Assembly: GCA_036676495.1 (NCBI GenBank)
Contig: JAKFCT010000038.1
Coordinates: 1-64,000 of the forward strand
Reading direction: 5' to 3'
DNA from: Candidatus Sericytochromatia bacterium
GTDB taxonomy: Bacteria > Cyanobacteriota > Sericytochromatia > S15B-MN24 > UBA4093
DNA: 64,000 nucleotides
Positions 5,219-45,227 of this stretch are shown here, piece after piece (the stretch's first letter is position 1; every line of letters begins with the position of its first letter). The translations under genes were made by a program, and so were the position numbers. The notes under the pieces are model-generated. The model saw nothing but the letters and a program-made list of their open reading frames with translations. It did not search any database and was not told the DNA's origin.

Positions 5219-5863
5219 TTAAGCCGAGAGGGGCTTGAAGCCGTAATCGAGGATGGACTTGACCTTGCTCTTGAGGTTCTTGTAGAGGTCGGTCTCCTTG
5301 AAGAACTTCTCTCCGAGGAAGAAGCCTGCCATGCCGACCGCAGCCCCGCCGAGGGTGAGCAGACCGCCCGAGAGGCCGATCATGCCCAGAGCCGCAGTGC
5401 CGATGGCGGCGGCGGCGGTGCCGGCGACGCCTCCAACGAAGCCGCTGGCGGTATCTCCGACGACGCGGCTACCGGCCTCGGCGACGGAGATCTTCTTGGT
5501 GATGGCGCGGTAGCCATTGAGGACCAGGGACATCGCTCCCTGGATGCCGGCGGACTTGGTGCCCCAGCTCAGGGCGGTTTGGCTGAGGGCCTTGGCGGCG
5601 CCGAAGGCGCCCGAGAGGTCGAAGCCCTTGAGGGCGGTGAGGAGTCCCTGGCCGCTGCTGAGGCCCTCGGCGCCGCCCTTGATGGCGACATGCGCGGCGT
5701 TCCCGAGGCGGCCGACCGACGAGAGGCTGCTGAGGTTGTCGCCAAGGTTGCCATTGGCGGAAACGCCCTGAGCCGCGACCGATTTCACCTGGGGAGTCAC
5801 GGCCTTCGCCATGCTCGGAGCCTGGGGACGGTAAGCGGACGAAACGGACTGAATCGATGCCAT
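5219..5863 (-). CDS. Gly/Ala-rich protein with glycine-zipper-like hydrophobic hairpin, no signal peptide
   Basis: GAGGAGG RBS; Ser/Ala-rich N-terminus; GFVGGVAGTAAAAIGTAALGMIGLSGGLLTLGGAAVGMAGFF. Confidence 0.75.
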   Translation of the reverse strand: MASIQSVSSAYRPQAPSMAKAVTPQVKSVAAQGVSANGNLGDNLSSLSSVGRLGNAAHVAIKGGAEGLSSGQGLLTALKGFDLSGAFGAAKALSQTALSWGTKSAGIQGAMSLVLNGYRAITKKISVAEAGSRVVGDTASGFVGGVAGTAAAAIGTAALGMIGLSGGLLTLGGAAVGMAGFFLGEKFFKETDLYKNLKSKVKSILDYGFKPLSA

Positions 5864-5914
5864 GGGGAGCCTCCTCTCAGGGGTAACGACCGGGGGGCGC
5901 GGGGGGCGCCGCCA

Positions 5915-5985
5915 CCCTTGCTTAGGAGGGTTGTCGCCGTTAAGAAGGCGTCAATTGTCTATCTTGCGCTTAAGCTTTGGTTAAG
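5915..5985 (-). promoter_or_regulatory. TTAA-N7-TTAA box plus sigma28-like promoter
   Basis: Minus strand: TTAA-ccaaagc-TTAA ... CAAT-N15-GGCGACAA-ccct-CCTAAGCAAGGG; same layout as 18293-18363. Confidence 0.5.
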
Positions 5986-6068
5986 TATCGGCCAAAAGGA
6001 GGCTACGAGCCGCGAACCAGACGCGCGGGGCCCCGAAACGAGGCCCCGCGGCGGAACGACCCCCGTGC

Positions 6069-6857
6069 TTAGCGAATGGCCGAGAGCCGATTCGCCATCT
6101 GCTCGATGGCTTTTCCCGTCGAGGTCAGGGCCTCGGGGGAGTTCTGGCTGAGCTGCATCTGGGCGACCTGAATGGCGGGAGCCACGGCGCTGACCAGATC
6201 CTGGACCCGCTCGTTGCCGGGCGCCAGGCTGGCCGCGATGAGCTGGGTTTGTGCTTCGCTCAGCCAGAGTCCCGCGGCCTTCGGGTTGCCCTGGACCATG
6301 TCGACCTGGGCGTTGGCCAGGGCACGGTAGGAATCGCTCAGCAGTTCGGGGGCAAGCTTCTGGGTGAGGATGGGAGCCGCCTGGCCCGCTCCGCCTCCTC
6401 CGCCGAGCTGTGGCAAGGCGGTCATGGTCTGGTTGAAGCGCAATACCAGATCCTTGAGGGCATCCTCGGAGGCCGGCGAACGCGCGGTCAGCCTCCGCTG
6501 CGCCAAGCTCGTCAGGCTGATGAGATCATCGAGGGCGCGGTTCAGCTCCGGGTCGGCCAGCTTGAGGTTTCGCACGCCCATGAGCCGGGTCCGGGAGTCG
6601 AAGACCTGATTCAAGGCGATCTGATCGCGCCCCTGGAGGGCCGCGGCATGCGCCTCAACCGCCGAGGTGTAGGCGCCTTCCAGGTTCGCCGCGATCGAGC
6701 CCTCCCGCTGAAGGGCCTGGATCTCCTGCTTGGAGAGCGGCTTGGTCACCTGCGGGGCCGCGCCCGGCGCGCTCCCCTGGGCCCATCCCGCCCCCCCGAT
6801 TCCCACGGCCAGCACCAAGGCCAGCGGCAGGACATGCTTCCCATGCGTCACGCGCAT
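6069..6857 (-). CDS. Secreted/periplasmic helical hypothetical protein with two similar halves
   Basis: AAGGAGGAG RBS; signal peptide ending AGWA; two helical halves joined by GGGGGAG. Confidence 0.7.
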   Translation of the reverse strand: MRVTHGKHVLPLALVLAVGIGGAGWAQGSAPGAAPQVTKPLSKQEIQALQREGSIAANLEGAYTSAVEAHAAALQGRDQIALNQVFDSRTRLMGVRNLKLADPELNRALDDLISLTSLAQRRLTARSPASEDALKDLVLRFNQTMTALPQLGGGGGAGQAAPILTQKLAPELLSDSYRALANAQVDMVQGNPKAAGLWLSEAQTQLIAASLAPGNERVQDLVSAVAPAIQVAQMQLSQNSPEALTSTGKAIEQMANRLSAIR

Positions 6858-6991
6858 CGCTCCTCCTTCTCTGCCCCTTCACCGTCCCCACGGTATCAGG
6901 GAGAGGCAGCGAGACTGGACGCCATCCCGCCGAATTCCATGGGGCGTCTTGCGGTCAAGCAGCCCCCCGGGTTTTCTGGGATAATGCCTCC

Positions 6992-7549
6992 ATGGCCTGG
7001 ATCTCCCCGCAAACCGCCCACGACCGCCACGGCTCCCCCATCCTCCTGCGCACGGCCCAGGAGGTGGATGCGGCGAGCCTCTTGCTGCATACCGAAGCCT
7101 GCGACCGGGAATCCACCTTCCTCAGCCGGGAACCCGGCGAGAGCATCACCACCCTCGAGGAGCAACGCAAGCTGATCCGCCGCTACAGCGAAGCCTCCAA
7201 CGCCCTCTTCCTGCTCGCGGAGCAAGAAGGCCGGCTGATCGGCACGCTCACCTACACGGGCTGGCACCTGAAGCGCATGCGCCATACCGGCCGCTTCGGC
7301 ATGAGCCTCCGCAAGTCCCACTGGAGCCTCGGCATCGGCGGCATCCTGCTCGACACCCTGATCTCCTGGGCCCGCCAGAACGGCACGACCCGCAAGATCG
7401 GCCTCGAGGTCCAGCACGTCAACACGCGGGCGATCGCCCTCTACCAGGGACGCGGCTTCGTCGAGGAAGGCCGCCTCAAGCGCGAGATGTGCATCGACGG
7501 GCAATGGATCGACCTGATCCAGATGGGGCTCTGGCTGGAGGACTCCTAG
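6992..7549 (+). CDS. GNAT-family N-acetyltransferase
   Basis: FGMSLRKSHWSLGIGGILL, LEVQHVNTRAIALYQGRGFVEEG. Confidence 0.9.
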   Translation: MAWISPQTAHDRHGSPILLRTAQEVDAASLLLHTEACDRESTFLSREPGESITTLEEQRKLIRRYSEASNALFLLAEQEGRLIGTLTYTGWHLKRMRHTGRFGMSLRKSHWSLGIGGILLDTLISWARQNGTTRKIGLEVQHVNTRAIALYQGRGFVEEGRLKREMCIDGQWIDLIQMGLWLEDS

Positions 7550-43817: not shown

Positions 43818-43857
43818 GGATTCCTCCTTGCTAGGCGCTTTGCTGCGCCTTCCCTGA

Positions 43858-43884
43858 TCATCGACCGGGATCGGAGGAAGTTTA
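43858..43884 (-). promoter_or_regulatory. sigma28-type promoter of fliK
   Basis: TAAA-N15-GTCGATGA. Confidence 0.65.
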
Positions 43885-43906
43885 GAGCGAATTCTCGAGG
43901 AAGCGC

Positions 43907-44185
43907 CTACCGGGCTCGGACCTGAACGGTCTCGCGGCGCAGAACGCCCGCGGCGTCGAACTCCCGGATCATGGCCTGGGTCGCCCGCTCGGGATCGGCG
44001 GGCTCCCCCTCCGCGTCCACGAGCAGCCGGACCACCCGGACGATCGGAACGATCTCGTCCGCATCTTCGGGGCGCGCGACCATGACCCCCTCGCGCAGGT
44101 AGACCTCGCGGTTGGCCGGCGGGACCTCCGCGACGGGAAGACGCTGGATCACCGTGTTGGTGTTGCCGTCGACGAACTCGATCAT
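43907..44185 (-). CDS. Small hypothetical protein (92 aa)
   Basis: ATG 1 nt after peptidase stop (TAG-C-ATG); no signal peptide. Confidence 0.65.
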   Translation of the reverse strand: MIEFVDGNTNTVIQRLPVAEVPPANREVYLREGVMVARPEDADEIVPIVRVVRLLVDAEGEPADPERATQAMIREFDAAGVLRRETVQVRAR

Positions 44186-44186
44186 G

Positions 44187-45227
44187 CTAGCCAACCTTCG
44201 GCCGCGCCGCCTGGCGCCCCCCGACCTTGAACTTGGCGTCGAATTCGCGCTGGTAGATGGCCTCCAGGATCCGGGCCCGGTTCGGATACTTCTCCTGGAA
44301 CGCCTTCAGGGCCTCGGGCGTCCGCCGGGCCTCCTGGTAGTAGCGCCAAGCCTCCGCGAAGTCCTCGTTGGGGTTGTTGGAGCCGTACGTCGAAATCTGG
44401 TTGCCGTCCGCCTTGAGGGCCTCTTCCCAGCCCGGCGGGATCATCTCCGCGTGCCGGGTCCGGCTCGTCGAGTAGCCCGCGCCGAAAAGATGCGCCATCT
44501 CGTGGTTGAACGTACCCTCGATGAGGTTGTACGGGTTCTCGTCAAGGTTCCAGAAGGTGATGTTCCCGCCGCCCGCCGTGGCCGCCGAGGAAAAGGTATC
44601 CCGTCCGTAGATCTTCGCCCAGTAGGCGTCTTCGGGGTTCGCCACGGTCTCGAGCTGGATCGACTTGAGGGCCGGCCGCAGATGCGCCGGCACCTCCGCG
44701 TAGTACGCGATGACCTTGGCCAGTTGTTCCTTGGGGTCGAGGCCCTTGGCCACTCCCACGTCGAAGGACAGCCCTTCGATCGTCAGGCGGAACTGCTCAC
44801 GGTCCGCCGCATCAGCATTCGCCTTCGAGGCCTCCGGGCGGGCAATCCTCACGACGACCGGCTCGCCGACCTGACGCGGGAAGGCCGTGATCTGCCCGGC
44901 GATCGCCTTGGAGACGGCCTCTTCCTGGGCCAGCACCGCCGGGGACTTTCCAGCGAACGGCCGCCGGGCGGGCTTCGGCTCCGGCGTCACCTCGGGGGTC
45001 GTGGTCGTCTTCGCCTGACGCGCCTTCTCCGCGATCTCGGAAAGCTCTTTCTTGGGTTCGGTCGGGAAGCTCAAGTCCAGACGATCCAGGCGGATCAGAT
45101 CCGGCGGGAGGCCCTGATCGGCGACATGCTTCGCGAGAGTGGCGTCGAAACTCGGCTCAAGGCGGTTCTTCCCCAGAAGAGTCGCCGAGAGATCGATATT
45201 GGTAGAGGCCTGGCTTCGTATGGACAC
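44187..45227 (-). CDS. Zinc metallopeptidase (HEXXH + EDFAE)
   Basis: TFNHEMAHLFG ... ISTYGSNNPNEDFAEAWRYY ... YPNRARIL; AGAGGA RBS; no signal peptide. Confidence 0.8.
   Translation of the reverse strand: MSIRSQASTNIDLSATLLGKNRLEPSFDATLAKHVADQGLPPDLIRLDRLDLSFPTEPKKELSEIAEKARQAKTTTTPEVTPEPKPARRPFAGKSPAVLAQEEAVSKAIAGQITAFPRQVGEPVVVRIARPEASKANADAADREQFRLTIEGLSFDVGVAKGLDPKEQLAKVIAYYAEVPAHLRPALKSIQLETVANPEDAYWAKIYGRDTFSSAATAGGGNITFWNLDENPYNLIEGTFNHEMAHLFGAGYSTSRTRHAEMIPPGWEEALKADGNQISTYGSNNPNEDFAEAWRYYQEARRTPEALKAFQEKYPNRARILEAIYQREFDAKFKVGGRQAARPKVG

Follow-up and report, generated by a model that had tools for sequence, protein, structure and literature searches.

Does the flagellar type III exporter of Sericytochromatia also carry proteins that are not part of the flagellum? 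The question is raised by a 64,000-nucleotide (nt) stretch of DNA from a Candidatus Sericytochromatia bacterium (assembly GCA_036676495.1, contig JAKFCT010000038.1, positions 1 to 64,000; the window), in which Pfam and NCBIfam scans delimit a flagellar and chemotaxis operon running from flgB to cheW (21057–52097, minus strand). Precedents exist, as Yersinia YplA and the Campylobacter Cia and FspA proteins are non-flagellar proteins that pass through the flagellar exporter. The original prediction, made from the sequence alone, held that extra copies of the substrate-selection parts (a soluble paralogue of the cytoplasmic domain of FlhA (FlhA-C), and a second FliK-like gene with a paralogue of the FlhB C-terminal domain), together with two plausible cargoes, a metallopeptidase and a glycine-rich protein, point to an added export class. 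All four flagged open reading frames (ORFs) are confirmed at their stated positions; they lie on the minus strand, use codons as genes do and have close homologs. The four do not form one module, and most of the composite hypothesis lacks support. Homology and gene order indicate that the metallopeptidase and a small protein encoded next to it are probably a polymorphic-toxin tip and its predicted cognate immunity protein. The complete reading that we favour, in which this toxin–immunity pair is resident and the peptidase is flagellar cargo, we put at a probability of roughly 45%.

A metallopeptidase with a disordered leader in the flagellar operon

The peptidase gene (44187–45227, minus strand) encodes a zinc metallopeptidase resembling Pro-Pro endopeptidases (PPEPs) and lethal factor. 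From its motifs, its fold and its homology to VgrG and MuF proteins we predict that it is a toxin, and we treat it as a candidate cargo for flagellar export. The zincin domain spans residues ~95–330 and follows an N-terminal leader of ~90 amino acids (aa); the HExxH motif and a downstream EDF motif are intact in all 18 homologs. In the structure model, the predicted local distance difference test score (pLDDT) is below 50 at residues 1–90 and mostly 85–97 per block at 100–330. Structurally, the domain comes nearest to Pro-Pro endopeptidases and to the catalytic domain of lethal factor (Z 12.3, 12.0 and 11.0; Foldseek E ~5e-5), in agreement with Atlas, and the top structural match, PPEP-3, aligns over 178 residues at a root-mean-square deviation (rmsd) of 3.7. 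The Pfam ATLF score, at 15.6 bits, lies under the curated cut-off of 27.4, and a PDB sequence search with the peptidase gave nothing useful.

Consistent with the original prediction of a signal-peptide-less metallopeptidase in the fliJ–fliK interval, no signal peptide was found: the maximal 10-residue hydropathy is 0.88, compared with 2.2–3.6 in three window proteins that evidently carry one. The peptidase thus combines the absence of a Sec signal with an unstructured N terminus, as expected of a flagellar substrate. The leader matches no Pfam domain, and its length and disorder are retained in homologs down to ~44% identity. A short motif recurs in 14 of the 18 otherwise variable leaders (2 of 9,000 shuffles) and in 0 of 186 other stored proteins, a control set that was not matched. 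We take this motif to resemble the short N-terminal motif of the FlgM type.

For comparison we used L001, a Candidatus Sericytochromatia metagenome-assembled genome locus and the single related genome locus confirmed among at least 599 candidate stretches from an FlgE scan. Gene order from flgC to flhB is identical to that in the window, at 55–100% identity. Among the 26 genes matched between the two, the peptidase is the least conserved (55% versus 68–100%). Its codon use resembles that of the neighbouring genes and gives no support to the idea that the cassette was acquired horizontally in recent times.

The peptidase domain recurs on other carriers, probably with a related partner gene

The fliJ–fliK interval holds two genes, the second of which was overlooked in the first reading. 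This gene, orf95 (43907–44194, minus strand), overlaps the peptidase stop codon and encodes a small cytoplasmic protein of 95 aa, a predicted cognate immunity protein or inhibitor by virtue of that overlap, its L001 copy and its profile matches. In L001 it has 71% identity and the same position, and the peptidase–orf95 pair occupies the fliJ–fliK slot in both loci. Searches with orf95 in plasmids, Pfam and PHROGs gave nothing useful.

Outside the lineage, the peptidase is homologous to the C terminus of a VgrG protein of a type VI secretion system (T6SS) in Paraburkholderia caribensis (28% over 195 aa, E 9e-17), the only such match among 72,556 plasmid records, and to the C terminus of a Phage_Mu_F protein (probability 98%), the one match that 50,697 phage records yielded. 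The same C-terminal domain is therefore mounted on two unrelated carriers, VgrG and MuF. We built a profile from the two orf95 copies (window and L001) and searched it against 1,126 reading frames covering all loci and the window. The best non-self frame was an ORF of 57 aa that immediately follows the MuF peptidase of the phage (E 5.6e-5). The second was the gene next to the VgrG peptidase, whose hidden Markov model (HMM) E of 2 is not significant; the score of orf95 against this VgrG-linked gene was reached by 0 of 5,000 and 19 of 5,000 shuffles. A related downstream gene is thus clear for the phage and weak for the VgrG. The VgrG partner has a lipoprotein-like N terminus, which orf95 lacks, and a search for additional VgrG-type pairs in plasmids returned only the self match.

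Because one toxin tip and a related small partner stand behind three different N termini, we read the two genes as a polymorphic toxin–immunity pair. MuF proteins are reported to be a polymorphic-toxin family in which 20% carry metallopeptidase tips (PMC5576092), and Pseudomonas is reported to have a metallopeptidase fused to VgrG together with its cognate immunity (PMC6899460). Among the papers listed in a literature search, none dealt with the peptidase–orf95 pair in Sericytochromatia; supplements lay outside this search, and the toxin or immunity family may already have a name in Additional file 1 of PMC3482391. As a separate observation, the Paraburkholderia caribensis locus (L002, 3091–9064) is an unannotated T6SS island comprising the VgrG-peptidase, its lipoprotein-like partner, a LysM-muramidase and one more gene.

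Candidate export of the peptidase through the flagellum

The window encodes a complete export apparatus in the operon (fliPQR, flhB, flhA and fliHIJ), together with fliA, by Pfam and NCBIfam. Given the toxin–immunity pair, we consider its export by the flagellum to have slightly better than even odds, a judgement drawn from the absent Sec signal, the disorder of the leader, the fliJ–fliK position and the conserved leader motif. The peptidase would be synthesised in the cytoplasm and held inactive by orf95; its unfolded leader would hand it to the flagellar type III exporter, taking the place that a VgrG or MuF carrier has elsewhere and doing so with no Sec signal; and the exported enzyme would target competitors or surface proteins outside the cell. 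In Lysobacter, antagonistic proteins are reported to leave by a flagellar-type exporter (PMC7688988), and Zhang et al. describe an RNase of the toxin type encoded in flagellar operons of Firmicutes and pose its flagellar delivery as a question (PMC3482391).

Several observations weigh against flagellar export of a toxin. The comparison rests on one related locus, that of a close relative. The peptidase matches just 1 of the 72,556 plasmid and 1 of the 50,697 phage records, and orf95 resembles the VgrG-linked gene only weakly (BLASTP E 0.002 over 29 aa; HMM E 2), with the reverse search from the VgrG-linked gene ranking orf95 third among non-self hits (E 0.39). A shallow alignment may partly explain the low pLDDT of the leader, and the leader motif was defined post hoc, from an alignment of related sequences. 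Only 3 of the 18 peptidases carry, within their first 60 residues, an FxxxPhi motif resembling the FlhB gate-recognition motif; as the definition of that motif comes from subunits of the rod and hook (PMC8983047), its absence would be tolerable in late or chaperoned cargo. The promoters point the same way. No sigma28-like site was found upstream of the peptidase; the cassette is instead preceded, in the window and in L001, by a conserved -10-like element that is not of the sigma28 type, and a strong sigma28-like promoter lies after the cassette rather than before it. This promoter (43858–43884, minus strand; -35 4/4, -10 6/8, 15-nt spacer) would drive fliK onward; in L001 its spacer is identical and its -10 differs by one base.

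Among the sigma28-like operon sites the -35 score is 4/4 before fliK, 3/4 before TIGR02530 and 2/4 before flgB, and the fliK and TIGR02530 sites are also found in L001. A further, near-perfect sigma28-like site (50396–50422, plus strand) lies within the start of fliF, antisense to the operon and facing fliE. The -10-like element upstream of the peptidase (45227; also in L001) is shared with the soluble FlhA-C gene (15801) and flgB (52097), all on the minus strand, and is probably the primary-sigma promoter type of the lineage.

fliK2 and flhX are accessory flagellar genes

The predicted second FliK-like gene with an FlhB-C paralogue inside the operon is borne out. Canonical fliK (42393–43817, minus strand; Flg_hook E 1.6e-19) is accompanied by fliK2 (38114–39700, minus strand; Flg_hook E 2e-13), which shares just 24% identity with it over 67 aa. 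Directly behind fliK2, the second gene with a FliK C-terminal domain (FliK-C), lies flhX (37818–38123, minus strand; Bac_export_2 E 1.5e-21), a stand-alone gene resembling the FlhB cytoplasmic C-terminal domain (FlhB-CC). FlhX aligns with the part of FlhB after NPTH, has neither the autocleavage motif nor the membrane part, and matches TIGR00789 best among NCBIfam families (101.6 bits, under the 117.35 cut-off). The pair sits inside the operon with flgE on one side and swrD/flbD on the other, and is also in the L001 operon.

Contrary to what had been proposed for the extra substrate-selection copies, such pairs are not special to this lineage. A fliK2–flhX operon is reported in Pseudomonas putida, with fliK2 described as uncharacterised in the part of that source considered here (10.1101/2021.08.29.457346, which also cites Helicobacter FlhX as a partial FlhB substitute); Nitratiruptor has an flhX–fliK pair (PMC9321776), and FlhX serves as a standard flagellar query (PMC10746217). 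We examined the flhX neighbourhoods of three of the six matching plasmid or chromid records. The gene upstream of flhX carries a Pfam FliK domain in two of them (Cupriavidus and Acetoanaerobium), and in the third (Bacillus) it has no Pfam FliK match and is recognised by a four-sequence FliK2-C profile (E 1e-7). Since the pair is already described and occurs in other phyla, it does not speak for an export class specific to this lineage. We regard fliK2–flhX as ordinary accessory flagellar equipment.

A soluble FlhA-C, probably from a different gate lineage

The predicted soluble FlhA-C exists (14611–15801, minus strand; Pfam FHIPEP at residues 163–391, E 7e-43), and combines a helical N-terminal domain of no known kind with D1–D3 and no D4, as judged by Pfam, fold and tree. 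Its gene lies ~5 kb past cheW (21057), the last operon gene, back-to-back with ruvB; ruvB, ilvE, an NHL-repeat protein gene and a DUF3326 gene intervene. The model has the FlhA-C D1–D3 fold, with an rmsd of 2.2–2.9 Å to Salmonella FlhA-C over ~220 columns, and identity across 12 relatives is 83–90%. Both the N-terminal membrane domain and D4 of an export gate are missing, D4 in all 13 copies.

The site at which FlhA docks cargo is also altered. In Salmonella, the chaperone dimple is reported as D456, F459 and T490 (PMC8166844), and L461 as essential for FliT binding (PMC5932034). All 13 soluble copies replace F459 by S or T, L461 by R, K, Q or H, and T490 by Q or H, and keep only the acidic residue at 456; among 73 membrane FlhA rows, F459 is present in 56, L461 in 44 and T490 in 59.

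A maximum-likelihood tree of 41 of the 117 domain sequences, with bootstrap not fully settled, nests the protein with other soluble FlhA-C proteins and a full-length membrane gate, P0056 (support 99/96). Its grouping with the window's own FlhA is rejected (p-AU, the P value of the approximately unbiased test, 0.0013), and its branch is long; the same soluble FlhA-C/P0056 clade appears in an earlier FastTree of 110 of 157 rows, fragments dropped. A duplicate of this genome's FlhA is thus rejected, so that the predicted paralogue stands as a gene and falls as a copy of this FlhA with a working cargo dock. From these sequence features we read the protein as an offshoot of a different FlhA-type gate, which would more probably regulate export or serve as a decoy than dock cargo. 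Among the papers listed in a literature search that did not cover supplements, none dealt with soluble FlhA-C proteins.

P0056 and P0179 share a branch that is separate from the window's FlhA and does not fall within SctV. An identity of P0056 as an injectisome SctV is rejected, as the five SctV references cluster on a branch of their own (support 1.0) and P0056 falls among FlhA; it scores 766 bits against TIGR01398, whose cut-off is 772, and its dimple is changed as well (L461 to K, T490 to A). Another divergent gate, P0145, groups at 100/99 with fusions to TPR, ankyrin and FliG_N domains. The divergent membrane lineages P0056, P0179 and P0145 each group with soluble FlhA-C fusions and are possibly unrecognised FlhA-derived export systems. 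Overall, 31 of 154 FlhA-C matches carry another N-terminal extension, including TPR, ankyrin, FliG_N and beta-helix domains, some of these rows being perhaps fragments or chimeras. The N-terminal domain of the window's soluble protein compares with those of other soluble FlhA-C proteins at an hhalign probability of 11.7%, in a region where the window model is poor. A PHROG match of the FlhA-C domain comprises seven unannotated phage records, which are probably host flhA fragments.

The glycine-rich protein

The second proposed cargo had been described as a signal-peptide-less glycine-zipper protein behind a sigma28-like promoter. The gene is real (5219–5863, minus strand) and encodes a lineage-restricted Gly/Ala-rich protein with 19 homologs at 42–100% identity, a Ser/Pro/Gln-rich N terminus, one hydrophobic Gly/Ala-rich stretch (~139–185) and no signal peptide. 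It matches no family: none of the 19 members matches a Pfam glycine-zipper family at E ≤ 0.1, and a PDB sequence search was also empty. A sigma28-like -10 box is present (5985–5992, minus strand; 7/8), and no -35 was found (0/4 at spacings of 14–17); the 7-mer of the -10 has seven exact occurrences in the window (~0.01 per 200 nt). A terminator-like hairpin lies beside the gene (5211–5192), which is 15 kb from the operon with housekeeping genes between. With half a promoter as its flagellar link, the protein is a weak cargo candidate. Around it are further proteins with no Pfam or NCBIfam family (6069–6857, minus; 4528–5130, plus; 3748–4518, plus), two of them with signal peptides.

Weighing alternative explanations

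The pair could instead be a passenger cassette between two transcription units, either a cytoplasmic protease and inhibitor of a toxin–antitoxin-like or regulatory kind, or one that leaves by another route. We consider this unlikely, although it draws on several of the points already raised: a conserved -10-like element precedes the cassette in both the window and L001, fliK has its sigma28-like promoter after the cassette, the gate-recognition motif is not conserved (3/18), and a cytoplasmic orf95 is what a cytoplasmic target would predict. Against a passenger of this kind stand the long disordered leader and its conserved internal motif, kept in homologs down to ~44% identity, together with native codon use and the identical slot in L001. 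It is improbable that the exported peptidase serves motility, cutting wall or surface proteins for assembly or surface release, with orf95 as an internal inhibitor. Pro-Pro endopeptidases cut adhesins of their own producer, and they provide the closest solved fold (Z 12.3 and 11.0); in other bacteria, moreover, the fliJ–fliK slot is occupied by wall hydrolases or MotE-like genes. A motility enzyme would sit poorly with nearest extra-lineage relatives that are VgrG and MuF toxin tips with the same small partner, and with a peptidase that is the fastest-evolving gene at the locus.

The other two alternatives turn on the soluble FlhA-C. As originally predicted, this protein, FliK2 and FlhX could be a lineage-specific selection module for an added export class that includes the peptidase and the glycine-rich protein. 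All of the parts exist, fliK2–flhX lies in the operon in both the window and L001, its function is called unknown in the part of the Pseudomonas putida study considered here (10.1101/2021.08.29.457346), and the soluble FlhA-C is 83–90% conserved in 12 relatives. The module is nevertheless very unlikely, given that fliK2–flhX is widespread, that the soluble FlhA-C has a changed dimple in 13 of 13 copies, no D4 and a p-AU of 0.0013, and that the glycine-rich gene has no -35. Alternatively, a second, non-flagellar exporter with a P0056-type gate might be encoded elsewhere in the genome and be served by the soluble FlhA-C, perhaps along with the proteins that bear a leader. The nesting with P0056 (99/96), the separate branching of P0056 and P0179 and the changed dimple of P0056 would fit, whereas P0056 could simply be another lineage's usual flagellar FlhA (TIGR01398, 766 versus 772), the window has no such gate gene and the soluble FlhA-C branch is long; we see only a small chance of it. 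Of the proposal that non-flagellar cargo uses the flagellar exporter, a resident toxin–immunity pair keeps the peptidase alone, through a tip shared with VgrG and MuF proteins, a cognate gene and a disordered leader; the argument from extra selection parts does not carry over, nor does the case for the glycine-rich protein.

Neighbouring genes

The TIGR02530 gene (41506–41889, minus strand), in the flgD–flgE interval, encodes a protein with a Pro-rich N terminus and a weak match to DUF4258 (E 0.15 in the window, 0.046 in L001). It may be the flagellar-operon RNase of PMC3482391, and with it a second toxin-like cargo candidate. FliE (50756–51253, minus strand) is 165 aa long, with its domain at residues 101–165 behind a long Pro-rich N-terminal extension that is retained in L001. 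A PilZ/YcgR gene directly follows flhA (26719–27385, minus strand), with flhF and flhG not between, and a small membrane protein of no family is encoded between cheD and fliA (22422–22730, minus strand). Transfer RNA and Rfam scans of the window gave nothing useful.

Comparison with known systems

With a toxin–immunity pair in a flagellar operon, a single short leader joined to a reporter would be enough to put the question of flagellar delivery to the test. If true, our reading would suggest that a little-studied group, sister to the cyanobacteria, uses its flagellum for antagonism, and the soluble FlhA-C clade hints at a second FlhA lineage. At its broadest, FlhA-type exporters would serve Sericytochromatia as weapons: the flagellum would deliver the toxin, and possibly the RNase-like TIGR02530 protein and a membrane-active glycine-rich protein, beside a P0056-type non-flagellar type III system that is tuned by soluble FlhA-C and arose apart from injectisomes. 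This is speculative and quite unlikely as a whole. In the part of PMC3482391 considered here, the listed carriers of polymorphic toxins are type II, V, VI and VII systems, the Photorhabdus virulence cassette (PVC) and phage MuF, with flagellar delivery merely a question.

Fold and zinc motif are common to the window peptidase, PPEP-1, PPEP-2, PPEP-3 and the catalytic domain of anthrax lethal factor, from which the window protein differs in its low identity (11–17%), its lack of a Sec signal and its partner gene. The soluble protein shares the D1–D3 fold of the FlhA/SctV cytoplasmic domain and departs from it in having no membrane domain or D4, an altered dimple and an extra helical N-terminal domain. 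As in P. putida (fliK2–flhX), Nitratiruptor (flhX–fliK) and Helicobacter (FlhX/HP1575), so far as these are described, a second FliK-C gene in the window is followed by a stand-alone FlhB-CC gene; the window pair lies between flgE and swrD, whereas those of Cupriavidus and Acetoanaerobium lie beside fliS/fliT/fliC.

The cargoes Yersinia YplA and Campylobacter Cia/FspA lack a signal peptide and are assigned to the flagellar exporter, as we propose for the peptidase. The same is proposed for Lysobacter OH11 (PMC7688988). The accounts considered here do not describe these cargoes as toxin–immunity pairs encoded in a flagellar operon, and we infer export in the window case. A further likeness is to the polymorphic zincin-tip toxins (VgrG2b, MuF, Tox-ALF/Tox-MPTase; PMC3482391, PMC5576092, PMC6899460), which are reported to end, like the window pair, in a C-terminal HExxH peptidase followed by a small cognate gene; Pseudomonas aeruginosa VgrG2b itself is a distant fold match (Z 5.8). 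Unlike them, the window peptidase has no VgrG, Rhs, MuF or Sec carrier and a disordered leader in its place, orf95 has no lipoprotein signal, and the pair is encoded within a flagellar operon.

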